DNA of 64,000 nucleotides from Candidatus Kapaibacterium sp. (lineage in GTDB: Bacteria > Bacteroidota > Ignavibacteria > Kapaibacteriales > UBA2268). Position 1 is the stretch's first letter; every line of letters starts with the position of its first letter. Shown piece by piece: positions 574 through 46,146 of this stretch. The stretch is from positions 1,088,001-1,152,000 of the forward strand of contig OY762428.1 in the NCBI GenBank assembly GCA_963665665.1, read 5' to 3'. The notes under the pieces were generated by a model. That model had not been told where the DNA came from. It worked only from the letters and a program-made list of their open reading frames with translations, and did not search any database. The position numbers were made by a program, and so were the translations under genes.

Positions 574-762
574 GCACAAACCAACGCTAAGATGGCACGA
601 TCCAACGCTATGATTATACGAACCATCGCTATGATGACACAAACCAATGCTATGATTATACGAACCATCGCTATGATGACACAAACCAATGCTATGATGA
701 CACGAACCATCGCTATGATGACACGAACCATCGCTATGATGACACGAACCATCGCTATTATA
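574..762. repeat. Tandem repeat, 9 x 21 bp, consensus ACACGAACCATCGCTATGATG
   Basis: Nine contiguous 21-bp units read directly; units at 700-741 are identical, the others carry substitutions; no spacers. Confidence 0.95.
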
Positions 763-910
763 GTGCAAACAAAGGTATTTCCGAAGCTAAAAATCAATTA
801 TTAAAATTGCCACAGCTGCATTAATACCCTTATTTTCAATTATTTATATAAACATGAATATAATGAGCAATTTCTACAGGATAATCATCAGGAAAGATAA
901 AATATTAAAT

Positions 911-937
911 CAAAAGGCGGATTTAATCCGCCTTTTG
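911..937. terminator. Intrinsic terminator, probably bidirectional
   Basis: CAAAAGGCGGATT-T-AATCCGCCTTTTG perfect inverted repeat about 20 bp past the stop of the 959..2908 gene. Confidence 0.85.
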
Positions 938-958
938 TTTTATTCAATTAATATTATT

Positions 959-2908
959 CTACTTTCTTGGTAATGGAGTTCCGGAAATAATTCTTCTGAT
1001 TCTCGGGTCAAGCTTTCCTCCGTTGGCCTCAAGAGCTTTTATTACCGGTGGTATTTTTTCAGTCTGCCCAAGGTTCCAGTACAGTTGAACCAGGTTCTGA
1101 TATATCGGATACATTTTATTGCTTACCTTAATTCCCTGAAGCCATACTGCTTCTGCATTGGTTAGTTGGTTTTTATTTGCATAGGCAGCGCCAAGATTCA
1201 AATAAGCCATCGGAATATTCCTGTTTCTTTTAAGAGCAATATTCAAAATGTTAATAGCTTTGTCATACATCTTTTTCTGCATATAAACAGTACCCAGATC
1301 GGCAAACCATGCAGCATGAGGCTTTCCTCTTTTAAGCGCTTTTTCAAGAGGAACAAGAGCTTCGTCATAACGCTTGTTTATCAGGTATGTTTTTCCGAGA
1401 TTATAGTTTGCCAGATGATTATCAGGCTGTAACGCAAGAGCTTTTTTAGCATACTCTTCAGCTTTTTTCCAATTTTTCTGCCTGATATATACAGCCGACA
1501 GATCAATGTATAAATTGAAATTATCAGGATTTAGTTCAATTCCTTTGTGATAAAGGCTGTCAGCAACATCAAGTTTGCCTTCTACATAATATGCCTTTCC
1601 AAGGTCAAGATAACCTCTGGATTTATAGGGATAAACATCAACAGCATTCTGCCAGTAGGTTGTCCTGTTTTGGAAAACAGGTTCATAGGCATAAGTTCTA
1701 ATTGCAAATATCACAAATATTACTGAAGCAATAGCAATTGGAACAGGTTTTTCAATATTAATTTTTAAAGCTCTGAAAATTTCGAAAAGAACTATAATAA
1801 ATCCGAGAAATACCAGATAAGCCCTGTGTTCGGCATAATCAAAGAAGTCTCCTACATAAATAATTCTTATCAAGAGAGTTGGGAGCAGGAATACAAAAAA
1901 CCAAATGAAGCCAAACCAGGCTCTTCCCTTGTTAATATCTTTAAGGACGAACATGGAAGCAAGGAGCAGCAGAAGAACAACAACCCCGGTGATAATTGTC
2001 AACTGTTCAAAATTAGCAAGTGCATGCATTTTTACCGGAAGGATCATTTTCCCGAACATTGCAAAAATAGTAGGGAAATTTTGTATCAATGCATCTGGCC
2101 CGATAGTATCCGGAGTGTTTATATGGTCGGTAGCACCCTTCCTTGCAGCATACCATATCAACCCAAGTATAAACCATCCCGTAACAAGCGATATACCCTC
2201 CTTAGAGAAGATTTTCTCCCTGTGGTAGATAAATATGTAAGCTATACCGACAAATGGCAGCAGAGCCGTTGTTTCCTTTGTAAATAATGCAATCAAATAA
2301 GCCAGCATACTCAGAATATAAAATACGAACTTTTTTGCGCCGCCGGATTCCATGAAATTTATCAGGAAAATAAAGCATAGCAATATAAAAACAGCTATCA
2401 TCGAGTCATTTCGCCCGGAAATCCAGGATACCGAGGGAGATATTACCGGATGAACAGCAAACAGCATAGCCATAATAAATGAAGGTATTCTGTTATAGCC
2501 AAATTTCATCAATGCAAAAAACAATAAAATTGAACCCATTACATGAAAAGCCAGATTTGTCCTTCTGTAAAAGTGGGGGTCGGTTTTCCCCATCTGATGA
2601 TCGATAATAAATGATGAATCCAATATCGGCCGGTAATAAGTTGCCCCGATAGCTTTTTTAAAAGAATTCTTTATATTGGACGGATCCTGATTATATGCTT
2701 GTTGATCAAGAACAAAAATGTTATCGTCGCAATAAACCAGGCCATAATCCAACGTACGGTAAAACAAAGCAATAGTTGTAACTGCTATTATAAATGCAAG
2801 CAAAGTATTAATCAAATAAGGGTGAACTTTATCATTTTTTTGTACAATTTCTGCTGATTGTTTTTCTACCTTATTTTTTTTCTGATTTTTCTTGTTTTTT
2901 TTGCTCAT
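959..2908 (-). CDS. TMTC-like GT-C membrane glycosyltransferase (putative protein O-mannosyltransferase) with C-terminal TPR repeats
   Basis: N-terminal TM then YCDD acidic motif, YYRP, HP..SVSWISGRND, KE and AEHRAY motifs, about 11 TM segments, then tandem TPRs. Confidence 0.8.
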   Translation of the reverse strand: MSKKNKKNQKKNKVEKQSAEIVQKNDKVHPYLINTLLAFIIAVTTIALFYRTLDYGLVYCDDNIFVLDQQAYNQDPSNIKNSFKKAIGATYYRPILDSSFIIDHQMGKTDPHFYRRTNLAFHVMGSILLFFALMKFGYNRIPSFIMAMLFAVHPVISPSVSWISGRNDSMIAVFILLCFIFLINFMESGGAKKFVFYILSMLAYLIALFTKETTALLPFVGIAYIFIYHREKIFSKEGISLVTGWFILGLIWYAARKGATDHINTPDTIGPDALIQNFPTIFAMFGKMILPVKMHALANFEQLTIITGVVVLLLLLASMFVLKDINKGRAWFGFIWFFVFLLPTLLIRIIYVGDFFDYAEHRAYLVFLGFIIVLFEIFRALKINIEKPVPIAIASVIFVIFAIRTYAYEPVFQNRTTYWQNAVDVYPYKSRGYLDLGKAYYVEGKLDVADSLYHKGIELNPDNFNLYIDLSAVYIRQKNWKKAEEYAKKALALQPDNHLANYNLGKTYLINKRYDEALVPLEKALKRGKPHAAWFADLGTVYMQKKMYDKAINILNIALKRNRNIPMAYLNLGAAYANKNQLTNAEAVWLQGIKVSNKMYPIYQNLVQLYWNLGQTEKIPPVIKALEANGGKLDPRIRRIISGTPLPRK

Positions 2909-3037
2909 GGATCAATATCTATTAATTATACAGTTTACTTTTATGAAGTTGCAAGAGTTTGAAAACACCCGGTTTTATCTGTGTAAATCTTCGATATATT
3001 TAATAAAATAACCGAACAATCAACTTTTTGGGTTTTG

Positions 3038-4207
3038 TCATTTTTTAATATTATTATGTTCAAGCGCCTGTTCCCAGTCATGAACCTGGAATTTTTCACC
3101 GGCATCAGATTCTGCTTTTTCTTTGTTAGTTCTTATAAAACCACCATATTTTGTAATCACAGCAGCAGGGAATTTCCCATTTGTTGCAGCAATATATGTT
3201 TCTTCATTAAATTTATTATCATTTGCTATCCAGATGTCATAAAGCATTACACCGTTGAACTTTGTGTCGGTAATTATTTCACTTTCACTTTTCGCGCCTC
3301 TGAAATCATTACTTCCTATCCAAGTATCAAAATTTTCGCCGATTAATTCCAGCGAAACATAATTTCCTTCGAATATATTTTTTTCCACTTCAATGATACC
3401 TGACAGATCAATCAGGGCTAAACCTGCCTCGGAACAATTTTTTATTTCATTATTAGCTATCCGGGATAAATCTGCGACTTTCTTCATACTGTCGGCACCT
3501 ATACAAATACCGTACAATTCACAATTTTCAATCAGGTTACCGTCTTTTCCACCGATATTATTCCCTTCAATTCCTATACCACTTGGAAAAACAACAATAC
3601 CTGTACCATCAAAAAAATCGCTATCAGGAGATATTCTTTTGATATTTCTTATTATATTCCCATGAATCTCGGCAAAAGCAGGGCCGTCAAGAAATATTCC
3701 ATAATTACAGTTTTCGATAGTATTATACTCGATAAAATGCTTTGCAGTTGTTGATTCTGAATAGATAGCAGCTCCATTTATTTGTTCCGGATTATTATAT
3801 ATATCATAAAAATTCCTGAAAACAAATCCTTTAATAGAAATATTATCCGTGTAGAGAGAAAAACCGTTTCTCTGAGAAATGGATTTCTCTTCGAAATCAC
3901 CGTCAATAATCGGTTTATCAACACCAACAATTTCCATGCTTCTGTGCTGGTCGGTAAATGAATTACTTTCGTAGTAAGTAATTTGTTCGTCGTCATACAT
4001 ACCAACTACATGAACCACATCGCCTGTAACAGCAGATTTCAATGCTCTTTTTATAGTTTTAAAAGCTCCCTGCTCAGTATTGTCCTGCCCGGTGTTCTCA
4101 TCATTTCCAATAGCCCCGTTCACATAATAATGTGCAGAAAAGGATGAGTAAGACATAAATATTATTGTTAAAAACCCAATTATCAATTTCATTATCAACT
4201 TCCTCAT
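3038..4207 (-). CDS. Secreted right-handed beta-helix (pectin-lyase-like/NosD) protein
   Basis: Signal peptide, YYV..GND.N.G..AFKTIKRAL cap, repeated N.I.NC..GI rungs; colinear with the N-terminus of the 3794-aa protein. Confidence 0.85.
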   Translation of the reverse strand: MRKLIMKLIIGFLTIIFMSYSSFSAHYYVNGAIGNDENTGQDNTEQGAFKTIKRALKSAVTGDVVHVVGMYDDEQITYYESNSFTDQHRSMEIVGVDKPIIDGDFEEKSISQRNGFSLYTDNISIKGFVFRNFYDIYNNPEQINGAAIYSESTTAKHFIEYNTIENCNYGIFLDGPAFAEIHGNIIRNIKRISPDSDFFDGTGIVVFPSGIGIEGNNIGGKDGNLIENCELYGICIGADSMKKVADLSRIANNEIKNCSEAGLALIDLSGIIEVEKNIFEGNYVSLELIGENFDTWIGSNDFRGAKSESEIITDTKFNGVMLYDIWIANDNKFNEETYIAATNGKFPAAVITKYGGFIRTNKEKAESDAGEKFQVHDWEQALEHNNIKK

Positions 4208-4252
4208 ATATTACGGCAAAATAAAGATGTAATTTAAAGAATTTGCCTGAAT

Positions 4253-4280
4253 AAAAAAAAGGCGGGGTAAAAACCCCGCC
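4253..4280 (-). terminator. Intrinsic terminator of the 3794-aa gene
   Basis: GGCGGGGT-AAAA-ACCCCGCC hairpin with an adjacent A8 run (U-tract on the minus strand). Confidence 0.85.
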
Positions 4281-4304
4281 TCTTAATCTATCATCTAAGA
4301 AGAA

Positions 4305-7300
4305 TTATCTTGCTATGATGAATTTCTTGATGATCTGGTCTTCACCGGCTCTAATATTCAGGATATAAGTTCCGGAAACAACGTTGTCAAGATTAATCTT
4401 GATATCGTGTGCACCGGCTGAATAATAGCTTCCGTTGAGTGCGCCGAGAACCTTGCGTCCAGAGAGATCAAGAACGTTAACTGTTACATTCTGTGAGCTC
4501 TGAAGCTCGAGAGTGAATGTAAGGTGATCAGTTGCAGGAACAGGCATCAGGTTAGATACGAAGAGGCCTGCTTCTTCATTTTCTCTGCTAAGGATGATAA
4601 CATCCCTGTGTGCAAGCAAGAATTCACGTCCATCAATACCTACAGCTACCAGCTTGTAGAGATATTCGTCGCCAACTCTGAGGTTAACATCATCATCAAC
4701 GAATGAGTATCTGTTATCTACGCCGCCAATTGCTACTAAGCCGGCATCGCTTGTAAAGCTACCAACTTTAACATAATCGAAGTCAACAGCATCCCAGGAT
4801 GTGTTAGTTACGTCAGCTCTGTAGAGTTCGAAACCAACGATACCCTGTTCGAATGTTGTGTTGAAGTCGAGATATGCATTAGCATTGTATGACTTAGCTG
4901 TAAACTGATCGAGTTCTACATACATACCACCTGCAGTTATACGGCAATCCGGAATTTCGATTGAAAGCGGGTTACCTGTACCAAGGTCGTCAATGTAATT
5001 TGTTGTAGGTGCTGCTACGCCATGGTGACCATTGTAGCGATACTCAGTTACTTTAGCATAGTAGTAAGTGTCATCGTTAAGGCCGGAAATTTCACCGGAC
5101 TCATCTACATCACCATTAGCAATGGCTTTAGAACCATCAGTGCCGCCTTCAGGAACAACAACTGTATTTGTTGTAAAGTTAATGTTTCCTGAGCCAACAT
5201 TGTAGTATTCACCATCAACAGGAAGTGACGGATAGTTATTTTCACGCATTACAACTACACGAGCATTACCGTTACGGCCGTTGCTCCATGAAAGCTGAAC
5301 CATACCTTCGCCGCCTACACAAGCGTCATCAATAACCTGAATACGTCTTGCCTGACGGTAAGGTTCAGTAGCTCTAAGAACGAAGCCATCATCGGTACCG
5401 CTATTTTCAGTATAACCTGACAGATAGCCTGTAGCAGATGCTTTGATCTTATTATAAGCGCGACCATCACCCATATACTGGTAGTAGCGTTCGTAGTTCG
5501 GATATGAATCCCATTCGAATGATGCGAATGTAACTGATGAGCTGCCGCCACCAATGTTACCTGTGTTGTTAGCTACAGCACCTGCATAAGTACCATCGTC
5601 GTAGATAGCATCAGCAAGTGTTCCAGCGTCAACAGGAGTAAGAGTGATATTAACAGTTCCGTCAGTTATAGGATTACCAAGCCTGTCTGTCCTTTCAACA
5701 CCGAGTTCGTCGAATGTATCGTGAGATAATTCAACTTCAGCCGGCATGTAAGCTGCAAGGAAGCGAAGCTGGTAGATTGTCCAAGGATTCTGTGAGCAAT
5801 CACTTGTATTGTAGTTCTTAGGACCAGAACCCTGGTTGTAAGCAAATACGTGTGCAACGTAGTTCTTATCTGATTCAAGGCCAGTAACAGTAACTGTGTG
5901 AGTTGTGTTAGAACCGTCTGTATCAGGAATTACGTCAACAACCCTGAATCCGCTTGCAACTTCAGTTGCTGAGCTCCAGCTTCCATTGTTATCCGCGTAG
6001 TCTGTGAAGTCTGACGGAGTCCAAGTGAATGCTGGCAGGCTGTAACCTTCCATAAGAACAACAATGTGTCCGCCATTTACAGTTCCATATTCCTGGAATG
6101 TGAATGTAAATGATGTGGAAGCATTGCTTGTGAAGTTAATTTCACAATCCTGTGCAGGTTCTGAAATGTATGCAGCACCAGTGAATTCAACTGTAAATGA
6201 ATCGCCGGCATAGCATGTAGCATTTTCCTGAACAGTAATTGTACCACTGTGATTAAGGTGTTCACCCTGAGGATAATACTGTACCCAGAATGTACCGCTT
6301 TCATCAGTGAGTGTAATTGTTGATGCCCAAGCATCAGCAGCGTCTTCCCTTACCCTGAAGTTATCGTTACCGTCGTTATCTGCAACAGATACCTGGATAG
6401 GATAATCAAGTTCAGAGAATGTGTAAAGAACAGAGTATGATGTTGATGACTCTGTCATTTCTTCAATATAACCAAAGTCTGTACCTGACTGTGATACGAA
6501 TGTAACTGTAGGTTCAGTTGTGGTTATTGTCGGTGAGCTTGTAAATGAGCTGGAACCGCAAGTACTGTTAGCACGAACCTTCACATAGTATGTCATGTTA
6601 GGATCGAGAGCACAATCAGAAGCTGTCCAGCTTGAAGGTGTTACAACAACATCAGAGCCAACCTGTACATCTGCTGATGTAAATACCTGAACGGTATAAT
6701 CATCTGCATCTGTTACGTCTGCCCAGTCAGCTGTTATCCTTGTAGCAGGATAAGTATCATGAGCAGCTACTGCAACTGCTGCCGGAGCTGCCGGAGGCAG
6801 GTCAACAGTGATAGTTGAAGCAGGTGAGGATACAGCACCACAAGGTCCGCATACGAATCTTGCTTCTACTTCAGCGCCATCCCAACCACCGGATACTCCG
6901 GTAATTTCGATAGTATTAGGAGCTAAAGCAGGTATACTAATAGTTGCTGCATAGTCGCCACTGCCATAAGAACCAGTTGTAACCTGAGTCCATGACCTTG
7001 AAGCATTGGCATTTGTCCACCATGTTGGAACAACCGGGCCACATGCCTGACTATATGCGAGTGCGGAATATTCAAGATCTCCACCAATACAGATAGTTTT
7101 TGTAGTGTTATCCTGAATATCACCTGTTACATGCCAGAATATAGGAGCATCATACATAATCATCTGGCTGATTACTTCAGATGCGCAAGTACCATTGCTT
7201 GCAACTATCTTAATAATAGCATTTTTCCAATCCGGATCACCCGGGTTAGTCCTGCTATAAGGTACATTGCTTAAAGTAAGTGTTGAAGAATTAGCAGCAC

Positions 7301-10300
7301 GAGCTGTAACTGTAGTTCCTTCAAATGATCCTGATAACGGAATAGCAATGTATGACTGAGCATCATTCAGGAAGTCAACATACCATGTAATTGATGTAGC
7401 ATCTGCTACATTAGTTGAGAATGTTGCAGTTCCATCGTCGCATACATCGATTTCATTATCATAATCATCATTATTATCACCAAATCCTTCAATTGTAGTA
7501 ATTGTCGGTATCGGTGAAGCAGTAAGTGTAACTGTTGTAGTTGTTTCACTACATGCTCCGTTAGATGCAGTAGCCCAGTACTGGAATCCATCCTGTGCAG
7601 TTACTGTCCATGATGCAGAATTACCAGCTAAGCTGAATGAGCCGCTTGTAACTTCTGTTACAGAACTGCCATCTGTTTCCCAGAGTTTAGGATTATTCAT
7701 TCCTGAAATATTGTCATAAGTAATCCAGAGAACTTTGTCGTCGCCGATACAAACAGCGCCGGCTGGTTCTTCTGTGATATTTGACAAGTTAGGAGCGTCA
7801 GAAACTGAAATAGGACCATAAACAGTAGTATTTGCATCAGTACATACACCGTTTGAGTAAACGATCCTGAATGAAGCACTACTATAGCTAATCTGGTTAG
7901 AAGTTATGCTTGCGCTTGTACCTGAAACTGTAAAGTCGCCGCCAACGTTGATCCAAGTTGAACCATCGTTCCACTGCCACTGTCTTGTTCCATAAGCTGC
8001 GCCATCAGCTGTAAATTCAAGTTCAATTACTTCAGATTCGCAGAATGCAGTCCTTGTTGTTGCCCAAGTACCATTTGCATTAGGTGCCTGGTCAATATTA
8101 ATTGTTATCGAGTTTGAAGAGCTAACTGTTGCAGCTCCGCAACCTGAAACATTACTATATGTAACCATAAGTTCCATACCGTCAAGTGCATGTACAGGAC
8201 TGTCAATAACAAGGTTGTTACCTGTTACAGTAGCAGAACCGGTAGAAGTACCGAATGCATTACCTGCATCAGTTGATACTACTGCCCATGAAGTTCCACC
8301 GTCTGTTGTCCAGCTCCAAACAGGATTAGTAGGAGTCGGGTTACCTGTTACATCAGCAGTAACTGTGAAGTTATCATTTTCACAAACATCCTGATCGGCA
8401 GTTAGGATTGTTACTGTCGGAGGAACGTTAACCTGAACTTCAACTTCATCATTCTGAGGATCGATAACACAAGCTTTACCGCGGTTATCCCTCATGCTGA
8501 TGAGAGTGTAGAGGTTAGTTGTAATGATATTGTTCACTGTATAAGTGTACGGGAATGAAAGGATACCTGTTACACGGTCAGTAGTCTGGCCGTTTGAGTA
8601 CCTTACTTCTGAATTTGCACCATTCTGGCCGCCATCGATGTCGAATACGAGATCAAGATCACCATCGTAGCAAACAACTGCACAAACGTCAGCGCTTGTT
8701 GTTGGTGTTGCACATGCCGGAGTACCGGATGCTACTGTCATTGAACCAAGTGGCCATGTCCAGTAAGACCTTGAGTTCCTGCGTGCAAGATCAGGAGTTC
8801 CATCGATGTTTGTGAAGTAATTAGTCTGGTTGCTTGAGCCGTTGAATGAGAATACGCCGATTGTGTATTCTGTACCAGCGTTCAGGCCTGTAAGAACTAA
8901 TTCTTCAGTACGTGTTGTAACGTTATCATTCTTATAGATAAGTTTACCACTTGTCCTTGTAACGTTGGATGTTTCAGCCCAACCTACTGTACCATTATCT
9001 GTAAGTGTCGGGTATTCCTGGCCGTCAACCGGATATTCAGATCCGTCTGTTGGCATTGAAGAAGCCTGGATAGCTCCAACAAGAACACCAGTACCGTCGC
9101 CGTTAGTCCAGCGGAATTTAAGTTCGCTGTCCGGATTTGCAGGCTTACGGAATATAATTATCTGTGCAGGTGTAGGCTCGTCATTCAGAGCAAATGCTGA
9201 TGTACCTGAGAAGATACCCCATGCTGTCTGAAGGTGATCAACGCCTGAAACCTGGAGAAGGTCTGTTGTGTGATTTGAACCGGAACCATAATCTGTCCAT
9301 GCATCAGGATCAAGTTCTTCATCCCAACGAGCAGCATAAGACCAGGCAGCGTCAAAGTTAGTGCCGGCAGTGCTGTTGCATGTAAGACCAAATCTCAATT
9401 CGAGATCAAGATCTGTAGATTCTGGATAAATTGTTCCTGTAGGATCATAAGCACCGAGATAATAAGTATGATCTGTAGCATAAGTATCATCACCTTTACT
9501 AAACTCATCAGCAGGGTTAGTTGCATTAACTCTTGCTGCATATTTTGATCCTGTCAGGAAGTTTGTTGAATTAGCTCTGAATTCAATTGGCAGATATTCT
9601 CCGCCTACACCTATCGGGAGTAATACTAAGTCATACTGGTCAACATTTTCTGCTACAAGTGAACCAGTACCGTTTGTAACTACAAATGAGTTGCAAACAC
9701 CAACATTAGTAATTGTACCACCAACATTCATGTCATTGTCGCCAAGGAACATGTGAGCGGTACCACCAATAGGCATATTGCCTGTTGCGTAGAATTCATC
9801 ATAAAGAGTTACAGAAGCGGAACTTGTATTGGAGATTGAAAGATCAATGTTTCCATTAATATAAGTATCGCCGTCGTTAACCCAGCCGTGGCCTTCGCCG
9901 GTAGCAGGAGTAACGTTTTCTAAGTAACTACCGTTTGTTACCCAGATGAATTCGCCGTCGTTAGCATCGTCGATAGCTGTCTGTATTGAAGCATAGTAAT
10001 CAACGATATCAGCAGTTGTAAGCATATCTGCTGTTGTTGCAACATAAACGTTTGCACCAACGCAGGAAGCAACTGTCTGGAAGCCAACCTGTGAAGGATA
10101 AACGTCTGTGCCGTCATTCAGCCAAGGCAGGTAATCAACGCCATCAGAAACTGTAGCGCCAAGTGTACCCATCTTAGTGTTGTCTGCATGGTCGGGACCA
10201 TTTGCAGAACCCCACCAGTTACATTCAGCTGTAAGGCTGCTTGAAGTACCGGTGATTGAGTATGAAACACTACAATCTGATGTAAACGAGTTATGATAAA

Positions 10301-13300
10301 GAATCATATCTGTTGACCAGTCAGTTGCAACATTAGCATCGGATAATAATCCCAAATACCCAATATTAACTTCTGAAGTATTTTCAAAGTTATTATTAGT
10401 TATTGAAGCGCTTGCCAATGTTCCTGTTCCGGTTGAACTACCATAATAGATTAATTCAGAAGCATTAAAATCATTATTATTAATGTCTACTACTGATAGA
10501 TCATCATCATTTATTCCAAATAACAATAAGGAATTTTCTACATCATTGTTAGAAAATTCTGTATTATTGGCTTCAGATTCCTCAACAAGGAGTGCGTAAC
10601 CCATAGTTCCTGTAAATACATTATAGTCTAATAATGTACCTGTAATTGATGCTGATGTTACAGCAACACCTACTGCAGGATTCTGAAGAATGGTATTGTG
10701 ATCTGCTGCAAAATTGCTAATAGAAATATTTCTAATTTCGACAGCAGGAACTGTTGGTCCGGCCATTGAAGGAATCATCCTTAATCCACGAAGTGAAACA
10801 TTATCAGCAGTAATTGTGAAGAGTTCACTTGGTGAAGATGTCGGAATAATTGTCGGGCCACCAATGTAACCTGGTGTAGTTGCATCGTAAGCACTTGTAA
10901 GGCCGTCGGCTTTTTTACCAACAACACAAACATCTGCTACGTGTGCATCAATATTATCTTCCTGATATGTACCATTCTTAACCCAGATGAACTGACCTGC
11001 GGAAGCATCGTCAATAGCTGCCTGGATTGAAGAATAATATTCAAGAATTGTAGCAGTTGCAGGATCTTCATCTGTAGCCCTGATAATCGGAGCATAAGAT
11101 GTACCTGTAAGATTACAAACAAGGCCTGATACTTCTGTCCAGAACGGAACAAATGTTAATGAACCGCTGACATCAGTAATTGCAGCACCCTGATCTGCTG
11201 TAGAAGAACCTACATAAGTATTAAGTGCATTTTCAGGACCATACTGTGAATCATAATAGTTATCTGTAGCATCGATGCCGGCTGTTCCGCCATAAGCATT
11301 AGCGGCAACATAGATAGCAGCAGATGTTTCATCAGTAAACGAGTTGAAATTAATATTTACATCGTCCTGAATTGTATTGTCATCAGCTCTGAATAAAATC
11401 GGAACTGCTGTATAATTACTGAATATATTCTGAGTAATAGTAAGATCTGTAAGAGTTGCAGATGCATCAGTTGTAAATACATCAATTGCTCCATTTGTAT
11501 ATTCAAATGTATTACATGTAATTACAATATTATCAGAATTTATATCGCCAAATCCAAGATCAATAGATCCTGAATAGGAGGCTGAGTTACCAGAAATTTC
11601 GGCATTTGTAATACCGCCAAGGAATGTACCCAAACCATCCTGTACACAACCAAGCACGCTACCATAACCTGACTGGTTAACACCACCTTCGGCAGTAGTA
11701 TAAGGCTTGAATGTGTTATCAGTAATATAAAGATTAGTAACTGAACCGCTTGCAACTGAGAAGGCACCACCAATGTCAGTACCAGCAGTTTCAAGAAGTG
11801 AATTCAGAACTCTTGCGTCTGCAGCCCAAGGGAATGACACGAGTTTTTCTCTGTCAGTACCGTCGAAACCGGCAGCGTAAAGCAGCCATGAATCCTGAAT
11901 GTAAACAGTTGTTCTTAGAGCTCCGGCATCTGTCCAAACAGCACCGTCAAAGTCATTAGCATCGTTACCAAGATCAATTTTGAAGCCGTCAATTGTTACA
12001 TTGTCAGCAGCAACAAAGATCATTGGTTCGTTGTAATCACCCTGAACCCATGGAGCACCAGGAGTCTGGCCTGAGTTTTTGTACTGGCCGTCAAGGACTG
12101 TAGTTGCTGAATAGCCTTTACCCTGAAGTTTAACTGACTGCGTAATAGTTGATGAAGTTACGAATGCAAAGTCACCATCATCGAAATAAACTATATTAGC
12201 TGCGTCAGTACCCGCAAGAGCATCGTCAAGGTTAGCAAAGTAATCAACAGGTGAGTCGTTGTTCCAGATTGGTGCATACAATGTTGTTAAAGCATTTGTA
12301 GTGAACCAGCGAACAAATTCAACACCAGGAGTTACTTCAGCACCCTGAGTAGGATACTCGAACTGGTTGCCTTCAAGTTCAACATAGCCGTAGTTGCCGT
12401 CGTGTTTAACAGCAGGGCCATTTGCACTTGCCCAGAAGTTCCACCTTGCTTCGAGGTCATTTCCACCGTTAAGTGAAATTGAAGCACTTTCGAAACCAAC
12501 TGCAGGACTTGCATCTGTGTCAAGTACAATGTTGTAAAGGAATTTGAATTCGTTATCGAAGTCAGCAATATCGGTACCGCCGAGAACATCCTGCATAATA
12601 TACAGAGCCGGATCATTTGTACTTCCATTCTGGAATGTATTATGGTGGAAGTAAATTCCGGAGAATGTTCTGCCAGTAAATGTCGCACTTGGATCAGCAA
12701 ATACGAAACCGCCATCAGCGATATCATTATTATTTACTGTAACGCCTGCAATACCGGCACCAAGGCCGAAGTATGCATTGTTATTTCCGTCGACATCATT
12801 ATTGCTGAGAGTTACGTTACTTGTTGTAGTTGATGTCGGAGTGATCTGGAACCAAGTTGTTGAACTTGCAGTTGTGAATGTATTCCAGTTAACATCAAGA
12901 TAATTTACGCCGTTTCCGTCAGAAACGTCAACACCTGCATCTGTTCCGTCAAGATCAAATGAACAGTATTCAATTCTTGAATTGTTCAAAGAACCTGTGA
13001 ACTGAACACCGGCTGTTACGCCAGTTGCAGTCATGTCAAGGTTGAAACCGCGCATTGAAACGTTATCAGCTGCAAAGAAGAAGAGAGTCCCTGTACCGTC
13101 GCCGGCAACGATAGGACCTGATCCTGTACCTGCTGTTCCGCCTGTCCAGGCGTCAGCTGTACCGGAAGGAATACCAGTTGTACCGGTTACCGGTTTTTTA
13201 CCTCTCAGGTAAACTTCTTCGTCAACTGTAACTGATTCGCTGTATGTACCTTCTTTTACGATGATATGATCACCGGTTGCTGCAGCGTCAACTGCAAGCT

Positions 13301-15689: not shown

Positions 15690-16078
15690 AATAAGACCTT
15701 AGATTATTAATGGAACAAAAAATTAATTTGAAATTTGTAAAATATCTATTCAAAAATTCATTATACATTTAATTGTAAAATCCCTGATATTTATTTAACT
15801 ATTAATATTTTCAATCATTTATTTTAACATCTCTTTTGGTTTTTAAATCCCCCGTCGGTGTACATCCTAATTTACGCTGTTACACAAAATACAAACAAAT
15901 ATAAAAAAGAAAAATATGCCAAGCAAAATATTTTTAACCATTCTTAATAAATATTAATTCAGACTAACCCTCTTATAAGTAGGATTAATCGTTGTTTTCA
16001 ATTTTTGTGTAATTTACCTGACAGTTTCAATCTCCTGAATTACTTTTTCCTATTAATTTACCTGTAAAATAATTTAAT

Positions 16079-16094
16079 TACAATTTCCATGCCA
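16079..16094 (-). promoter_or_regulatory. Possible variant sigma54 -24/-12 promoter for the 3794-aa gene
   Basis: Minus strand TGGCATGGAAATTGTA; GG-N10-GT spacing correct but -12 is GT rather than GC. Confidence 0.35.
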
Positions 16095-16183
16095 CAGTAA
16101 TATTACTTAATTTTAATTATTTCAATTAAGTATTAGTACAAATCTAATTTATTTTTTTGTTCTTTTCAATAAGACTTTTCCAC

Positions 16184-16214
16184 AAAAAAAAAGCGCCCCC
16201 TGTCAGGGACGCTT
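16184..16214 (-). terminator. Intrinsic terminator of the 3118-aa fibre gene
   Basis: Minus strand AAAGCGTCCC-TGACAG-GGGGCGCTTT followed by a U-run. Confidence 0.8.
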
Positions 16215-16238
16215 TATATTTTCGTCAATAATGTTTAA

Positions 16239-19200
16239 TTATTGAATTCTATGCCATACAAGGTTTGCATCAACAACAAACATTGCAGCATCACCAGGAT
16301 TTAATACTGTTGAATCAGCATCATCAAGTGTAAGAACTGCTGTTGCATTGCTGTTAATTACATAAAGAACCTGTCCTTCTTCTGAGTAACCGCCATCAGG
16401 TAGTGTAATATTTGTAGTGCCAAGATTAGCAGTAACATCAATTACAGTTGCCCAACCCAGATTTGTCCAGTTTGTTGAAAATGTCATTGCTGTAGCAGCA
16501 GCGGCATCAAGTTCAAAGTAGGAAAGAACTAATTTACCATAGGACATATGGAGTGTTGTTGCATTTGAATTTGTAGGTTCGTTTATGTTAGAATTAATAG
16601 TAGGATTACCTTCTGCAAGGATTGCTTCCCTTATATTAGCATAAGATGATACTTTAAGAGTACCATGGTTTACTTCAAGGTCGCCTCTTTCAATTACAAG
16701 TGCTTTACCAGTTTGATCAGATCCATTTGTATATTCATTACGAATAACAACTGTAGGATCTCCCGTAGGATCTGAAGTGTTAGTTGCAATAAGTGATGTT
16801 TCATCTGCTGTGGAGTTAGCAAATGTACCTGTGTGGCTGAATGTAAAGTCACCGTCGATTGCAATACCAGTGTTCCTTGTAAGAACTTCATAACCGTCAT
16901 AGTAGAGGTCTGATGAATATGTTCCGGAAGGAGCTGTGATAGAACCGTCGCTGGATACAACGATCTGATCAACGCCACCGGCCTGTACGCGAAGTGCACT
17001 TCCGATAACAACATCACCATCTGTCTGGATAGCTACGTCTGTTGCTGCACCTGTTGTGTTATTAACTCTTAATACAGGACTTGTTCCTGTTGCAGCATCA
17101 ATTCTAACGGTTCCGTCAACATCAACTACATCAAGGTTTGTTGTTCCGTCAACATCAAGATCACCGTTAATGTCAACATCATCTGTAACATTAAGGTCAT
17201 TGTTAACATTAATCGTATTGCCAACATATAGGTTATCTGTAACTGTTCCGGAAGAACCTACGATAAGTGTGCCTGAAACAGTCTGGTTTGTTACTTCAAG
17301 ATCATTTCCAACAAATACATCAGAGAATGAAGCATCTGCAGGAGTTGTAGCACCGATAGTAACATCATCCATTGTACCGCCATCAATATTTACATTAACA
17401 GCTGTGAAAGCAGTGTTAGCTTCAAGTGTTGTGAAGTAACCTGTTGCGCGTGTAGTATTACCAATGATTGTAGCATCGATATTACCACCATTTACGTCAA
17501 CGTCTGCAAATGTCTGTTCTGCAACCCAGCTGTTAGCATTGTTCATGTTAAGAGTAAGGCTGTTACTGTTTTCTGTAAGAGTACCGTCATACATAAGGTC
17601 AATCGGGTTAGCGGCTGTACCTGTACCTGTAATCGGGTGATCTGTTACAACTTCAGCATCGATACGAACTGTAGTACCAGTGTTAGTAGTAGTAATGTTT
17701 GTACCGCCTTCGAATGTGATAGCATGTGCAGCGTCTGTAAGATCAAATGCAGCACCTGCATCAGCACTTACAGAAGCGAATACTGTAGCATCAGCGATTT
17801 CAGTTGTACCAACAACGCCAGCATTAATATCAAGGTTAAGATCATCTGAATCTGTGCCTGTAATATTAATATCAGATGTAGTACCGTTATCATTAACAAG
17901 TACGTTAACGTTAGCAGCTGCTGTTAAGCGGCCATCTGCATCAACTGTAAATGTTGCAACTTCTGTAGCTGAACCATAAGAATCAGCAGAAACTGTTGTA
18001 GCAATAAGCTCATCAGCGCCAACTGAATTGTCAGCCATGTTGCGAAGCTCAACTGCGTTATCCTGGATCATACCATTTTCAATTGCAAGAGGCTGAATTG
18101 TGAAGCCAGCTGCATAGCTGCCGTCAATATCATTTACGATTGCAGGTGTATCATTGAATGTTACAACGTCAATACCATTTTCTGTAATGTCGCCGTTTAC
18201 TTCAAGGTCGCCAGTGAAAGTACCGCTGCCATTTACAACAACAGGGCCTGTAGCTGTGATAGCGTTTCCGCCAAGAGCTGATTCTACAACAAGTCCGTCA
18301 TAAACTGTTGCGCCGCCAGCTATTTCAGCGCCATTATCAACTGCAAGGAAGTTATGTATATCAACTCTTCCTGTGAAGTCACCTGTACCTGTTACAGTCA
18401 GATCACCATCAATATCAACATCGCCTGTAATGTCAGCACCGTCAGCGTTAACAAGAAGGCCACCGCTAACTATTTCAACACCCTGGTTAACCCAGAGGTC
18501 TTCATTAATTTCAACAAATCCGCCAAATACTGCTTCGCCAGTTGTAAAATCAATATAACCGTTAACGCCGTCCCATGTAAGGCCTGTGCCTGTTAATGTT
18601 GCGTTAGCACCTGCAGGATCGCCAACAAATAAGCCATTTGTGAAGTTCTGGATGTCTATCCATGTGTTTTCATGGTTCATGTTAAGTGAAAGGCTATTGC
18701 TGTTCTCTGTGAGAGAAGCATCATACCAGAGATCAATAGGATTGCCGGGTGTACCGTCGCCTACGATCGGGAAGTCAGTAATAACATCAGCTGAAATAAC
18801 TACTTCATTTGAGGCAGTTGCTTCGATATGAACGTTAGCATTACCTTCAACAAATGAGAATGTTCTGTTACCATTTGTAACATCAAATCCAGGACCGTTA
18901 TCGGCTGTTACTTCTGCGAAGATAGTTGCGCCGTTAATATCATCATTAACGATTGAACCGTCAACGATTTCTGTTGATCCAACAGTACTTGGATTAATAT
19001 CAAGTGTTAAGTCATCAGAATCTGTACCGCTGATTGCGATATCAGAAGCAGCATTATCGTCAACAAGAATATTAATGTTAGCTGCTGCTGTTAATCGGCC
19101 ATCTTCGTCTACAGTAAATGTTGCAACTTCTGTAGCAGAACCATAAGAATCAGCAGCAACTGCTGTTGCTATGAGTTCGTCCGGTCCAACAGAATTGTCA

Positions 19201-22200
19201 GCCATGTTGCGAAGTTCAACTGCGTCATCAGCAATGTAATCATTGATAACGCCATTGTCTTCAATACCAACTGTTGCATTAGTAGCAGGTGTAAGGTCTA
19301 CATTGATACCTCTGATACCTTCAATGCCTTTGCTGTTTGTAAGAGCACCTGGAGTATCCCATACTATAAATGGTTCGTCAATGTCAGCTTTGAGAGCAAG
19401 GCCGTCATCAACATAACCTTTTGTTGTTAATGTTGTACGTCCGTCTGCTGCATCTGTTTCATCTGAATAACCTTTTCCATCAAGATAAAGGTCTGCATGT
19501 CCGGTAATATCACCAGCTGCTTCAATGAAGTCATTAACTTCCAGACCTAATTCAACATAACCCTGGCCCCAGAACCAGAAGTCACCAAAGACACCATCAA
19601 TTTCAACCATTTCAACACCACCGTCATACATTGTAAGACCTTCAGATGAACCAAGGTATCCAGTCTGACCAATAGTAATTTCTGCACCACCCGGGAATGT
19701 AATATCATTGAAATTCTGATTTACTGCCCAGTTATTTACATGTGTCATGTTAAGAGTAAGGCTGCTGCTGTTAAGCGCGAGAGCTTCGTCGTAAGCAAGA
19801 GTAATTTCATCGCCAGGAATGCCTGAACCTACAACAGGATCAGCAGTCTGTACGAGAGCTGAAATTTCTACCTGGTTGCCAGGAAGAACTTCAATGCTTA
19901 CGTTAGGATTACCTTCAACAAAGTTGATTGCATTGTTAGTGTTTGTAACGTCGAATGAATCCATATCAGGATCAACAACTGTTGCAAATACAGCGTCGTC
20001 ATGAATATCGCCATTTACGATAGTACCATCAAGAATCTTAGCTGATGTTACAGCGTCAGGCTGAATTTCAAAACCGTTTGTATAATCACCGTCAATATCA
20101 AGTACTGTTAACGGGTTCATATCAACGTCTACAACATCAATACCATTGTGCTGAAGTGCACCGGCAAAGTTATAGTCCTGTGTAAGATCAACGTCTTCAG
20201 GAAGAATTGTACCGTTATCAATTTTATCAGTAGTTACAGCATTTGCTGCAAGTTTGTCATTATCAACTGCAAGATCAGCAATTTTTTCTGTTATAACAGC
20301 GCCATTAGCGATTTTTGTTGTTGTAACAGCTAAATTATCAATTTTGCCTGTTGTTACTGCAAGATTATTAATCTTACCTGTTGTTACTGCAAGGTCATCA
20401 ATTTTAGCAGTTGTTACACCAAGGTCAGTGATACCAACTGTAGCATTACCTGCAGCTGCAAGGTCAACTGTGATACCTTCCACGCCTGCAACGCCTTTGC
20501 TGTTTGTCAGGTTTGTAGGAGTATCCCATACAAGGTAAGGCTCGTCTTCAAGAAGGTCGATATGATCTTCTACCCAGCCTTTTGTAACCATAGTATTAAT
20601 AGGATCAGCATCAACTGTTACGTCTGAATAGCCTTTTCCTGTTATGTTAAGGTCGCCCATGATATCAACGTTTGCATCAAATTCTGCATCGCCGTCAACA
20701 TCAAATGTACCGTCAACCCAAACGTTTCCAACAACATTCAAATTCTGTGAGAATGTTGAGCTTTCATCAACAAGAAGAGCACCGTGGATTGTTACATCAT
20801 CACTGATTTCCATCGGAGCGTCAGGAGCTACCGGAGGAGTAAGTGTTACGTGGAGTCCGTTAGGATCACCAACGATTACTTCTTCCATACCAAGAATTGT
20901 TGTAGCGCCGATTGTTGAGTTTGCCCAGATATCGCCATAAGTTTTGATAGCTGTTTTCATTGCAGCAGCATTTGTGTTGCGTACAACGAGAACTGCATTG
21001 TCAGCGTCTGTAGGATCAAGGATACCAGTTACATTTTCACTGTTACCTTCGATATACATTGCACGGCCTTCATTTCCGCCGCCTCTGATTACTTCAGCTA
21101 CGTATTCGTCAACTGCAGGATTAGACATTGCATAGAGTGCCTGGCCTGTTTCAGCTATACCAACGATAGCATCGGCTGTACCGTCTGCATCGCCATATAC
21201 TGCTGCTGCATCATCGTCACCGGCTGTAGCTTCAAGATAGAAAGCACCGGCTGCGTGCATACCTGTTGTATTATTAATTACTGTATGTTCAACAACGAGA
21301 GCAGCTGAGCTGTGTCCGTCGTCGCCATCAACATCCATATCAATATAAGCGCCAATTGCATTGTCTTCAAGAGTTGTTACATCAACGTCTACATGAAGAG
21401 CACCTTCGCCAAGCTGTCCGTCAGTTGTTCTGTTGATATCAACTGTAGGAACACCATTACCACCACCGGAAGCAACGATAGCTGAACCGGCTGTTGTAAG
21501 GTTAGAAGGAACTTCAGCAACGATAGCGTCGCCATTGTTAGTCATTGTTACTGTAAGACCATCGCCATTTGCGGCTGAAGAGTTTGTCAGGTCAACTACA
21601 TTGCCTGTACCGGCAGTTTTGTTGAGAGCAAACATTGTCTGGTCTTCATCATTATCTTTAGTTACCGGAACTGTGAAATCATCAATTGCCCAGTCAGCGT
21701 ATCCGTCACCACCGTCATTGTTCCATTTAAGAACATATTCGAATGTAGGATCAACTGCAGGTGCTGTACCTGTATAAACCCAGGCTGTTCCATTCCAGTA
21801 AGCCATCTGGCCAAGAGTATTAGCATCAGCAAACTTATCAAGAGTTACTGCGCCATCTTCAATTTTATCTGTTGTTACTGCATCGTCAGCAAGGTCATCT
21901 TCCATAACCTGGCCGTCAGCAATTTTCTCTGTTGTTACTGCATCATCAGCAAGTTTGCCATTTGTAACTGCAAGGTCAGCAATTTTTGCTGTTGTTACAT
22001 TAAGGTTAGCAATCTTATCTGTTGTTACATTACCGTCAGCAATTTTTACTGTTGTTACATTGCCGTCAGCAATTTTTTCTGTAATAACTGCTGCATCAGC
22101 AATTTTCTCTGTAGTAACGTTAAGATCAGCAATTTTAACTGTTGTTACTGCATCATTGTCAATCTTAGGTGTTGTCACTGCAAGGTCAGCGATTTTATCT

Positions 22201-25595: not shown

Positions 25596-25659
25596 TTAGT
25601 TCCCCTAAAATGGTTATACAAATAAATTTCACTATAACTTAATGTTATTATTTTCATAG

Positions 25660-26247
25660 TTATCTTACTAATACCATTACATTTCGCAAATTATAAGCTC
25701 TGAAGCTGTCGCCTGCCATCTGGGCCGGTTTAACAACCAGTTCATAAAGATAAGAACCGGAGGCAGCATCTGTACCTGTAAAGTCTTTTCCGTCCCAGGC
25801 TGCCTGCTGTTCGCCGGAATTCTGATATCCGCTGAACAGTTCTTTAACTTTGTTACCTGAAACATCGTAAACAGTTAATGTAACGTAGGCGTAACCCGGC
25901 AGGAAGTACTGAACTGTAGTACTGCTGCTGAACGGGTTAGGGTAGTTCGAAAGCCTTGCTTCCGGTGGTGTCGGTTCCGGCACATCAACGCCCTGGTTTG
26001 CCTTCGGCACCCAGTAACCCTGATATACATCGATGATCTCGCCCGAATCTCCGTTCGAGATCTTCTCGATTGCTAACTGCCCAATCATCCCCGACATTTT
26101 CATGCCTGAAGAATTTTGAGCAGCAACCATTCCACCGCTGCCCATTGCCCACTTCTGAATGCGAACATTCTGTGAGAACAGGCCGCTCATCGTCAGCGGC
26201 GCAAGGATGCTGACAATGAGGAGTAACCTAAAGTGTTTTTTCATCAT
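25660..26247 (-). CDS. Small T9SS type A sorting-domain (FlgD-Ig-like CTD) protein
   Basis: Signal peptide, short SGG...GMIGQ...QGYW domain, then NYPNPFS...VYDVSGNKV..L..G....WDG.D..G...ASGSY.Y CTD. Confidence 0.85.
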   Translation of the reverse strand: MMKKHFRLLLIVSILAPLTMSGLFSQNVRIQKWAMGSGGMVAAQNSSGMKMSGMIGQLAIEKISNGDSGEIIDVYQGYWVPKANQGVDVPEPTPPEARLSNYPNPFSSSTTVQYFLPGYAYVTLTVYDVSGNKVKELFSGYQNSGEQQAAWDGKDFTGTDAASGSYLYELVVKPAQMAGDSFRAYNLRNVMVLVR

Positions 26248-26370
26248 GTGAACTCCTGTAGAAACTTACTATATAGACATTCATTTACTTATCTATCTTA
26301 AAAATTATTTTTTCAATCTTCGCGTATCTTCGAGGTTTAATTTTACATAGAACCCCGGATAGGGTATTCA

Positions 26371-26386
26371 AGCAAAATTTATGCCA
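26371..26386 (-). promoter_or_regulatory. Sigma54 (RpoN) -24/-12 promoter
   Basis: Minus strand TGGCATAAATTTTGCT matches TGGCAC-N5-TTGCW with exact GG-N10-GC spacing, about 125 bp upstream of the 26247 start. Confidence 0.65.
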
Positions 26387-45401: not shown

Positions 45402-46146
45402 TAAGTCACGAAGATAGAAAATTTTTCGAAATATAACTAAAAATAAATAGATGAATTTATCAGCAACAAAAGTAACAGATAATACTCATGAAATGAGTTT
45501 TCATGAATTATTTTCTCAGTCGACTCAGATTCAAATTCCATTGTTTCAGCGTGAATACGTATGGACTGAGAAACAATTTAAAAGGATGATAGAAGAAATT
45601 GATATTATAGTTGATGGTGAAGATACTAATAGATTCCTAGGAGCCATTATTGCAGTTAGACGTGAAGCCAATCCATCTCAACCTCAACCTTTTGAAATTG
45701 TTGATGGTCAACAAAGATTGTCAACTCTATATTTATTTGTGTTAGCAGCGGCCTATGTTGCAGCTCGCAATAAGGAAGATGATTATGCAAAAGGACTTAT
45801 TAATACAAATCTAATGATTGATTGGTGGCAGAATGGAATTAATACAAAGTTAGTTCCGTCATTTGCAGATAGAAATCAATTTTGTCAAGCATTTGGTCAA
45901 TTAATTTGAAATGCTCCCTATTGCTTAGACAAATAAAAGTATAGTTTATGGTGTTTATTAATCTATACTTCTTCTCTAATAAAATAAGAAAAAAATATGT
46001 AATAATATTAATTTTTCTTTTTTTTGCTACTTTTTTTTCTTTTTGTTAACAACCTGGAAATTGTGGATAACTTTCACTCTCCTTTCTATTTCTTTTTTTA
46101 TCAATTGCTTACCGGATTGCATTTTTTCACTTTTCCAACAAAGTTT

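Follow-up and report, generated by a model that had tools for sequence, protein, structure and literature searches.

A Kapaibacteriales surface-protein locus with two sequon-purged giants and a GT-C/TPR enzyme of TMTC-like architecture

The eukaryotic TMTC1-4 proteins, which we take to be glycosyltransferase family GT105, act on cadherins within the endoplasmic reticulum (ER) and combine a membrane domain of the glycosyltransferase C (GT-C) fold with a C-terminal array of tetratricopeptide repeats (TPRs). Bacteria commonly encode GT-C enzymes that carry TPR arrays, and to our knowledge none of these has a known substrate. In the available text of PMC7801869, the TMTCs are the sole characterized GT-C enzymes with TPRs, they act on proteins, and their topology comprises 11 transmembrane (TM) helices, a cytoplasmic N terminus and a non-cytoplasmic TPR array. 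Here, we analyzed a stretch of 64,000 nucleotides (the window; positions 1088001-1152000) from the complete, single-contig genome of Candidatus Kapaibacterium sp. (5.46 Mb, 38.6% GC), in which the gene for such an enzyme, P0001, lies in a locus with the genes for two giant surface proteins, P0003 and P0004. Our analyses revealed that this GT-C/TPR gene is an accessory that recurs, far above chance, beside giants purged of the general O-glycosylation sequon. From this context, P0001 may be a dedicated periplasmic protein O-glycosyltransferase for the neighboring giants, a reading to which we assign a probability of roughly 0.45.

Two further described systems bear on this locus. The PMT family (yeast Pmt1-Pmt2 and Pmt4, actinobacterial Pmt) uses a lipid-phosphate-sugar donor and takes Ser/Thr of unfolded exported proteins as acceptor; its members have 12 TM helices, compared with 11 in P0001. 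Bacteroidota also have a general O-glycosylation system, for which the available text of PMC8729774 gives the sequon D-(S/T)-(A/I/L/V/M/T), with S, G, C and F added at the third position in two species. In the same text, Veith et al. describe gingipains as entirely without the motif and read this as selection against glycosylating abundant type IX secretion system (T9SS) cargo. According to the available part of a 2025 review (PMC12871550), the oligosaccharyltransferase (OTase), the ligase and the core-glycan flippase of the general system are undiscovered, and a search among O-mannosylation homologues is suggested.

A GT-C fold enzyme with a TPR array

The AlphaFold2 model of P0001, built on 35 homologues (predicted local distance difference test 90.2, predicted template modeling score 0.84), contains 11 long helices within residues 30-412, followed by TPR helices at residues 415-645. 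Consistent with this, TPR families match residues 420-620 with E values down to 1e-21, and no other Pfam or NCBIfam match was found. When the full model was compared to the Protein Data Bank (PDB) with Foldseek, the list was filled by TPR proteins, and the GT-C matches were found by structural search without the Foldseek prefilter. Over model residues ~11-442 (28-430 in the case of Pmt1-Pmt2 and Pmt4), the VIA-align Z scores were 20.2 for Pmt1-Pmt2 (6p2r_B; 347 aligned residues, root mean square deviation 4.0), 20.1 for AglB (3waj_A; 325 residues), 20.0 for ArnT (5f15_A; 338 residues), 19.8 for Pmt4 (9e61_A; 359 residues), 18.2 for STT3B (6s7t_A; 333 residues) and 17.6 for ALG12 (9s6t_A; 320 residues). 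By sequence, P0001 gave only TPR matches in the PDB, the best E for an N-domain profile being 0.48, and a search of genome contigs with P0001 alone returned five weak, TPR-only loci, which were not used.

All 35 homologues share D61, R93, H122, R166, N167, D168, K211, E212, E360, H361 and R362, with the motif clusters YYRP (residues 91-94), GRND (165-168), TKE (210-212) and E360-H361-R362. D62 is conserved in at least 90% of the 35, and D61 and D62 are both invariant in 11 of 11 N-domains. In the model, the D61-D62 acidic motif closely follows TM1 (helix 30-54) and falls in the first loop outside the cytoplasm; by analogy with the family it is the putative catalytic motif. The N terminus of P0001 is K/R-rich (10 K+R in 30 residues), which together with the odd helix count places the TPR array in the periplasm; the predicted topology is thus N-in with the TPRs outside. 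Sequons inside P0001 were considered as topology markers and proved uninformative, as they coincide with conserved motifs.

P0001 resembles TMTC1-4 in its N-terminal 11-TM GT-C domain, its predicted cytoplasmic N terminus, a DD motif within the first outer loop, short non-membrane helices between TM7 and TM8, its C-terminal TPR array and its pairing with giant, beta-rich proteins of adhesion type. In the model, two short helices (residues 271-289) fill the TM7-TM8 loop, which is the position of DUF1736 in TMTCs. P0001 differs from TMTCs in its lack of a DUF1736 match and in its setting, the bacterial periplasm with T9SS cargo rather than the ER with cadherins. The sole sequence-level link is a language-model match: in the ESM Atlas the top clusters carry PMT_2 (0.97), while a cluster of eukaryotic DUF1736/TMTC proteins ranks 27th (0.92). 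PMTs are among the best structural matches, and PMT_2 (PF13231) is matched by 11 of the 35 P0001 homologues at E<=0.01 (best E 1.7e-9) and passes its cut-off in two P0001 paralogues from the same genome (33.9 and 29.9 bits); in place of the MIR domain, P0001 has a TPR array, and it scores under the PMT_2 cut-off itself. Thus, a preliminary description of this DNA, which had called P0001 a TMTC-like glycosyltransferase, is borne out for the modeled GT-C fold, the 11 TM helices and the TPR array, and not for the DUF1736 signature. We describe P0001, on its model, as a GT-C fold enzyme with TMTC-like architecture and do not call it a demonstrated member of the TMTC family.

Sequon-purged giants and the GT-C/TPR gene beside them

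P0003 contains no general sequon, compared with 25.0 ± 4.9 expected from shuffles, and P0004 contains two (residues 132 and 3094), compared with 26.0 ± 4.5 expected. Following D[ST], the third position in the giants is occupied only by D, E, F, H, P, Q, R, W or Y, except for a single A and a single T in P0004. The residues avoided (A, G, I, L, M, N, S, T and V) approximate the extended motif (PMC8729774, available text). E[ST]x and N[ST]x, which served as controls, were at expectation in both giants, as were the reversed motif and D[AG]x, with D[AG][AILVMT] at or above it (33 vs. 22.9 and 45 vs. 34.0). A genome-wide ranking, in which the third-residue set was AILVMTSG, identified P0003 as the most sequon-depleted protein in the genome (0 vs. 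36.1 expected, P 2e-16) and P0004 as the third most depleted (2 vs. 33.5 expected). With the same set, the observed/expected ratio is 1.11 for the whole genome; it is 1.21 for the 357 proteins with a T9SS C-terminal domain (CTD) and 1.55 for those under 600 aa. This over-representation in T9SS cargo suggests that the general system is active in the host and shows the purge to be specific to a few giants.

Three other causes of the purge were rejected. A general trait of T9SS cargo is contradicted by the ratio of 1.21 among CTD proteins. Avoidance of isoaspartate-prone Asp-Ser and Asp-Thr does not account for it, since neither D[AG][AILVMT] nor N[ST]x is depleted and the third residue matters. 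Repeats are not the cause either: divided into eight and seven 500-aa windows, the giants show the purge evenly along their length, also in P0003, which is not repetitive.

The purge is also kept in homologues at 25-27% identity, a further point against repeats as its cause. Among relatives (numbered G for genomes and L for loci, with G000 the window's own genome of 3,712 predicted genes), we counted sequons in giants that stand next to a GT-C/TPR gene or in homologous loci. The observed and expected numbers were 0 and 16.8 in G019, 1 and 17.9 in G006, 2 and 22.2 as well as 0 and 15.8 in G024, 1 and 26.4 in G379, 0 and 13.0 for the fiber of G004, and 1 and 15.3 as well as 0 and 8.4 in G007. 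These data indicate selection on the giants to evade the general O-glycan and, with the sequon gone, that they would not be substrates of the general system for O-glycosylation. They resemble in this the gingipains of Porphyromonas gingivalis, abundant surface T9SS cargo from which the sequon is completely absent. In contrast to gingipains, the proteins here are giants of 3-4 thousand residues with 25-36 sites expected and a fiber that lacks a CTD, the purge is kept across genera, and it coincides with a neighboring GT-C/TPR gene. What sets these giants apart with respect to the general system is that they are the most sequon-depleted proteins of this genome. Beyond the gingipain remark in the available text of PMC8729774, we found no report of such a purge in the literature covered, which did not extend to subscription journals.

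A second cluster of sequon-purged surface proteins lies outside the window, at G000:C1:2448517-2477180. It encodes proteins of 3,032 aa (2 sequons, 36.2 expected), 2,102 aa (5, 15.5 expected) and 918 aa (0, 7.0 expected), together with proteins of 735 and 740 aa (0 in each, 4.8 and 4.7 expected) that share the N-terminal domain of P0004 at 36% identity.

In a family and order sample of 41 genomes that includes G000, 15 have a P0001-family match at E<=1e-30, a patchiness that argues against P0001 as the universal OTase of the general system. For synteny we used 30 GT-C/TPR loci, comprising 27 fetched from relatives plus the paralogues of G000, of which 29 could be assessed; G005:C27, C495 and C32, G018:C99:16917, G006:C150, G036:C8 and G004:C2 were not in this set. 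A locus was scored positive if a co-oriented protein of at least 1,400 aa, sequon-purged at a Poisson P<=1e-3, was encoded no more than two genes upstream. Six of the 29 loci were positive, one each in G000, G019, G006, G022, G004 and G007. G019 has a 3,221-aa P0003 homologue (26.5% identity over 1,775 columns), a 386-aa P0002 homologue (35%) and the GT-C/TPR gene (44%). The other positives have a T9SS protein of at least 1,634 aa (G006), a 1,722-aa fiber homologue (G004), or a fiber and a 1,546-aa CTD protein followed by two GT-C/TPR genes (G007). In G022, two giants of at least 1,949 and at least 1,908 aa, the latter matching the P0003 T9SS CTD, precede 12 tandem GT-C/TPR genes (G022:C9:11648-37026; flanks L020 and L021), the largest such array seen.

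By comparison, 15 of the 3,712 genes of G000 (0.40%) have a purged giant as neighbor in this sense, and 67 have any protein of at least 1,400 aa. The corresponding binomial P for giant adjacency is 3e-9 (n=31); relatedness among the genomes and the inclusion of G000, the discovery case, make this value overstated. When metagenome contigs were scanned with an N-domain alignment, we obtained 28 loci, 25 of them distinct, and 13 with at least 3 kb upstream. In 4 of these 13 (L044, L045, L051 and L059) a giant, purged CTD protein is encoded directly upstream, and in two of the four a pair of GT-C/TPR genes comes after it. Some metagenome loci nearly duplicate GTDB genomes (L043 is the G006 gene), and the sample is therefore not fully independent. 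When 59 N-domains were placed on a quick maximum-likelihood tree, the genes next to giants belonged to several clades; parsimony counts 7 label changes, and the starred branches force at least 5. The neighboring giants share just the CTD, a Thr content of 8-18%, a K+R content of 3-5% and the purge. Thus, the synteny check proposed in the preliminary description finds giants beside ~20-30% of loci over a background of 0.4%. The literature covered, again without subscription journals, yielded no paper that describes bacterial GT-C/TPR enzymes next to T9SS giants. As a separate observation, an S41 (C-terminal processing) peptidase gene with a PDZ domain lies directly 3′ of the P0001 orthologue in G019, G020 and G006 (L008:14366-15979, L007:1126-2721 and L010:7045-8670); the window has no such gene there.

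The arrangement of these loci also allows a different role for the enzyme. P0001 might modify a lipid-linked or envelope glycan, such as the lipopolysaccharide (LPS)-type anchor that T9SS cargo receives once its CTD has been removed, rather than the giants, and be encoded nearby because anchoring needs that glycan; CTD cargo is anchored via anionic LPS (PMC4804311, available text). That ArnT, a lipid A modifier, matches P0001 as well as the PMTs do is in keeping with such a role, as are the tandem arrays of up to 12 paralogues in G022, which look more like glycan-building diversity than one protein-specific enzyme, and the T9SS CTDs carried by all four metagenome giants beside a GT-C/TPR gene. 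However, a TPR array in the periplasm is a module that binds proteins, and the only characterized GT-C enzymes with TPRs act on proteins (PMC7801869, available text). Moreover, the G004 neighbor is a fiber homologue that, judging from P0004, may lack a CTD and need no LPS anchor, and the genome encodes 357 CTD proteins, yet the enzyme stands beside purged giants only. We therefore consider a role in glycan building unlikely.

The surface proteins and their genetic setting

The locus consists of five co-oriented minus-strand open reading frames (ORFs), P0001-P0005 (Table 1). The preliminary description had listed an adaptor, a fiber, a 3,794-aa T9SS cargo, a beta-helix paralogue and a GT-C/TPR enzyme, and all five genes are present as described. 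Its terminators at 4253 and 16184 are also recovered, as the T-runs of two intrinsic terminators end near these positions. A terminator scan gave 22 terminator-like sites, compared with 12.0 ± 3.1 in shuffles. The three strong terminators divide the locus into three units, P0005-P0004, P0003 and P0002-P0001, in agreement with the earlier view that it is not one simple operon. The gap between the first two units must, as judged from the sequence, hold P0003's own promoter; within it, a TATATTTG box at 15903-15896 resembles what we take to be the Bacteroidota -7 consensus. Just 3′ of the P0001 terminator, a non-coding 21-bp tandem repeat occupies window positions 575-758 (8.8 copies, 84% match, unit CACGAACCATCGCTATGATGA).

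Table 1. Genes, terminators and the intergenic gap of the locus (window positions)
Feature	Position	Strand	Description
P0001, 649 aa	959..2908	-	N-terminal GT-C fold membrane domain (modeled) and C-terminal TPR array
P0002, 389 aa	3038..4207	-	Secreted beta-helix protein without T9SS CTD
P0003, 3794 aa	4305..15689	-	Giant T9SS cargo, type-A CTD
P0004, 3118 aa	16239..25595	-	Cys-free acidic fiber protein
P0005, 195 aa	25660..26247	-	Small T9SS-CTD protein
Intrinsic terminator after P0001	911..937	-	12-bp stem, 6 GC pairs, bidirectional
Intrinsic terminator after P0003	4257..4284	-	12-bp stem, 7 GC pairs, T-run
Intrinsic terminator after P0004	16190..16215	-	11-bp stem, 6 GC pairs, T-run
AT-rich gap, 500 bp	15690..16189	-	Between the P0004 terminator and the P0003 ATG at 15689

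P0003 and P0004 are the second and third largest proteins encoded by the genome, in which 357 of 3,712 proteins (9.6%) end in a T9SS CTD by a hidden Markov model (HMM) built in this analysis. P0003 comprises a signal peptide, several beta-helix modules in its N-terminal half, Cys-paired Ig/FN3-like modules and the type-A CTD. Its Por_Secre_tail match (Pfam, residues 3716-3792) scores 40.9 bits over a cut-off of 27, which supports the earlier assignment as T9SS cargo; fn3 is matched at residues 3184-3290 (Pfam) and a NosD-like beta-helix at 48-215 (NCBIfam). P0002, which matches Beta_helix (Pfam, E 1.3e-9) and no T9SS CTD in Pfam or NCBIfam, is 30% identical to P0003 residues 6-350, signal peptide included (E 4e-27), and is indeed a paralogue of this module. 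The two are the sole copies of the module in the genome, and P0002 homologues were found in 4 of 401 genomes of the class, all in the window's own family, plus G019. P0005, the candidate adaptor of the preliminary description, comprises a signal peptide, ~70 mature residues and a FlgD_ig-type CTD (FlgD_ig E 2.1e-10; Por_Secre_tail E 4.6e-4; TIGR04183 25.6 bits, cut-off 23). For its N-terminal part, no further homologue besides that of G024 was found among the fetched loci. Elsewhere in the window, 5 kb from the locus, a gene at 31231-34470 (minus strand) encodes a 1,079-aa T9SS cargo protein with DUF7948, an SBBP beta-propeller repeat, Ig domains and a CTD.

SprB of Flavobacterium johnsoniae is a giant T9SS adhesin; adhesins of this type are repetitive surface proteins with lengths of several thousand residues that leave the cell via the T9SS, and in this general character they are close to P0003. 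P0003 has no sequence relation to them beyond the CTD class. Unlike them, it has beta-helix modules and a free paralogue of its N-module, and no motility genes lie nearby. SprB itself is mentioned in the available text of PMC8986121.

P0004 comprises a signal peptide, a conserved N-terminal domain and tail-fiber-type repeats of 10 residues (for example, 1129-1219). The repeats match five PHROG families annotated as tail fiber or minor tail protein, the best being phrog_892 (E 2.8e-85) and phrog_28766 (E 9.7e-75), in line with its earlier description as a fiber. Neither Pfam, NCBIfam nor our CTD HMM detected a T9SS CTD in P0004, and sequence comparison with the PDB gave only marginal matches (E 0.06). 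Of 100 family genomes, 88 have a match to its N-terminal 340 aa, with identities reaching 67%.

The PHROG matches raise the alternative that the fiber gene and its neighbors are the remnant of a prophage tail module. Such an origin is very improbable: no other phage gene occurs among the window ORFs up to 52387, and the flanks are housekeeping genes (RsmB-type methyltransferase, HAD hydrolase, E2 acyltransferase, RluD, LspA and IleRS), which mark a chromosomal surface-protein locus, not a prophage. P0004 also has a Sec signal peptide, the second-highest codon adaptation index (CAI) in the genome and a GC content at third codon positions (GC3) as low as that of highly expressed host genes, and its N-terminal domain is widespread in the family. 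P0004 was therefore rejected as a phage tail fiber: its repeats match, but a phage or prophage context is missing. Homologues of the window's proteins carry the source labels Ignavibacteria, Kapabacteria or Bacteroidota. Farther along the window, at 45451-48636, a GmrSD-type restriction gene appears to be split, with GmrSD_N (152 aa, 45451-45909) and GmrSD_C (417 aa, 47383-48636) flanking a minus-strand gene (46147-46992) for an insertion sequence-type transposase that has rve and HTH_21 domains.

Both giants have an isoelectric point (pI) of 4.05, the lowest in the genome. Thr makes up 11.0% and 11.4% of P0003 and P0004 (99.6th and 99.8th percentile), and K+R 3.3% and 3.7%. The preliminary description had noted this acidic, Thr-rich composition, and its observation of biased codons is likewise confirmed: CTT accounts for shares of 0.47 and 0.71 in the giants (0.32 genome-wide), GCT+GCA for 0.86 and 0.92 (0.67), and ACA for 0.57 and 0.74 (0.42). 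Relative to a reference of 13 genes of the ribosomal-protein/EF-Tu cluster, the CAI of P0004 is 0.851, ranking 2 of 3,712 (99.9th percentile) and above EF-Tu at 0.839, and that of P0003 is 0.797, ranking 50 (98.7th percentile). P0001 has an average CAI of 0.703 (67th percentile). The effective number of codons is 42.3 for P0003 and 37.6 for P0004. The bias of the giants (CTT, ACA, GGT, TCA and ATC preferred, NNG and ATA avoided) has the same direction as that of the reference set. High expression, as suggested earlier, is thus a fair prediction from CAI, and both giants are predicted to be very abundant surface proteins. Foreign origin of the 42-45% GC block was rejected because its GC3 is low (0.28-0.31) and its CAI high; the GC excess arises from an Ala/Gly/Thr/Asp-rich composition.

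The locus varies among relatives and strains. G024 has, in order, a 207-aa P0005 homologue (39.5% identity) that overlaps the start of a fiber gene, fiber homologues, a 3,765-aa P0003 homologue, two FN3/CTD proteins and a P0002 homologue. After the P0002 homologue, in the position of the window's GT-C/TPR gene, G024 (L016:9077-10741) encodes a 555-aa secreted protein with an HE[YF]HH motif, a T9SS-like C terminus and no Pfam match, as does G379 (L017:10211-11875). Among contigs of public runs, one run matches window stretch 900-20899 without any difference and may be the source of this DNA. A contig of a related strain, X4, carries the stretch in one piece with ~1-7% differences, although at a contig depth of 4.3 single differences may be errors. 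On X4, four patches of P0003 of 120-400 bp (11297-11418, 11473-11871, 13799-14181 and 14252-14380; residues ~436-1464) are replaced by unlike sequence of similar length, and the replacement of patch 14252-14380 was also seen in a third run, from another study, at depth 42. These replacements may reflect diversifying selection on the beta-helix modules of the giant. The fiber repeats also differ in length near 20275-20899.

Taken together, these data identify a conserved surface-structure locus of this bacterial family. They are best explained by two major cell-surface structures, a tail-fiber-like fibril (P0004), whose gene is accompanied by that of the small T9SS-anchored P0005, and the beta-helix/Ig giant P0003 exported via the T9SS, plus an accessory pair formed by P0002, which is a free version of the beta-helix module at the N terminus (the tip or base) of the giant, and the inner-membrane enzyme P0001.

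A possible dedicated glycosylation of the giants

How P0001 might act on the giants can be outlined from the TMTC and PMT precedents. The Thr-rich giants would emerge unfolded from Sec and be bound by the TPR array of P0001, and before export the GT-C domain would use a polyprenyl-phosphate sugar to add a hexose to the hydroxyls of Ser/Thr, as PMTs and TMTCs do. The D-S/T-X purge would meanwhile keep the general O-glycosylation system from loading its large glycan on the giants, so that the purge and the dedicated enzyme would be causally connected. The preliminary description, which had the locus building and glycosylating a major envelope structure, holds as to a surface-protein locus; as to glycosylation, both giants are purged of the general sequon.

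A number of observations weigh against a dedicated enzyme of this kind. With regard to the enzyme itself, P0001 reaches only 24.0 bits (E 1.2e-4) with PMT_2 in a six-frame search, under the gathering cut-off of 26.1, and hmmscan gave no PMT_2 match at E<=10. DUF1736 (PF08409) has no match on P0001 at E<=10 or nearby in the genome at E<=1. The fold is silent on a protein acceptor, since ArnT, a lipid A modifier, and the oligosaccharyltransferase AglB score as high as the PMTs. With regard to context, 23 of the 29 loci have no giant upstream, with neighbors such as a Na/H exchanger, GlutR, YfhO, a TonB receptor or a histidine kinase, and the same holds for 9 of the 13 metagenome loci. The two closest paralogues in G000 (E 8e-82 and 4e-57) stand among ordinary genes. 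In G024 the last gene of the giant locus encodes the 555-aa HExxH protein with a T9SS tail in place of a GT-C/TPR enzyme, and the sole GT-C/TPR gene of that genome lies away from the giant locus. G379 has the fiber and giant at one place and the P0002 homologue with the HExxH protein at another, and in G018 the P0002 homologue and the GT-C/TPR gene are on different contigs. At least 10 family genomes with fiber homologues had no GT-C/TPR match at E<=1e-30, and fiber homologues occur in 88 of 100 family genomes, compared with GT-C/TPR matches in 12 of 24. Finally, other purged giants, such as the 3,032-aa protein at C1:2448517, have no GT-C/TPR neighbor, and the purge is therefore independent of adjacency.

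In view of these points, the GT-C/TPR gene could instead be a mobile accessory that settles near long, highly transcribed genes by chance or co-regulation, with no enzyme-substrate relation and with unglycosylated giants. The purge itself speaks for this, as it shows selection against glycosylating the giants and Veith et al. read the gingipains alike (PMC8729774, available text), and so do the strong terminators that separate P0002-P0001 from the giants, the missing adjacency in G024 and G379, and the merely average codon adaptation of P0001. Chance or co-regulation does not readily account for an adjacency that occurs in at least 6 genera and 4 metagenome contigs, in several clades of the enzyme tree, and with unrelated giants (beta-helix, Ig/FN3 and fiber), at ~20-30% of loci over a background of 0.4%. 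We regard a mere accessory without substrate relation as rather improbable, and return to a dedicated O-glycosyltransferase for the giants as our working interpretation.

Extended to the relatives, the data tentatively suggest that Fibrobacterota-Chlorobiota-Bacteroidota (FCB) bacteria have a second, substrate-dedicated O-glycosylation route parallel to the TMTC-cadherin system, in which GT-C/TPR enzymes, encoded singly, in pairs or in arrays of up to 12, modify purged, Thr-rich surface giants in the periplasm and, given the purge, would be the sole enzymes to decorate them; we consider this possible but somewhat doubtful. In a bolder extension, some member of the PMT_2/TPR family may be the undiscovered initiating transferase of the Bacteroidota O-glycan core.

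The locus and its relatives thus provide concrete candidate enzyme-substrate pairs in an organism with a complete genome, and the total loss of D-S/T-X provides a simple signature that flags surface proteins escaping general O-glycosylation. If the proposed pairing is correct, protein-specific O-glycosylation by GT-C/TPR enzymes would predate eukaryotes, the periplasmic handling of giant T9SS cargo would be explained, and, for the Bacteroidota O-glycan pathway, the hunt for its missing transferases would be narrowed. If the link between enzyme and giants is false, the purge would still stand as a striking case of selection against glycosylating the most abundant surface proteins.

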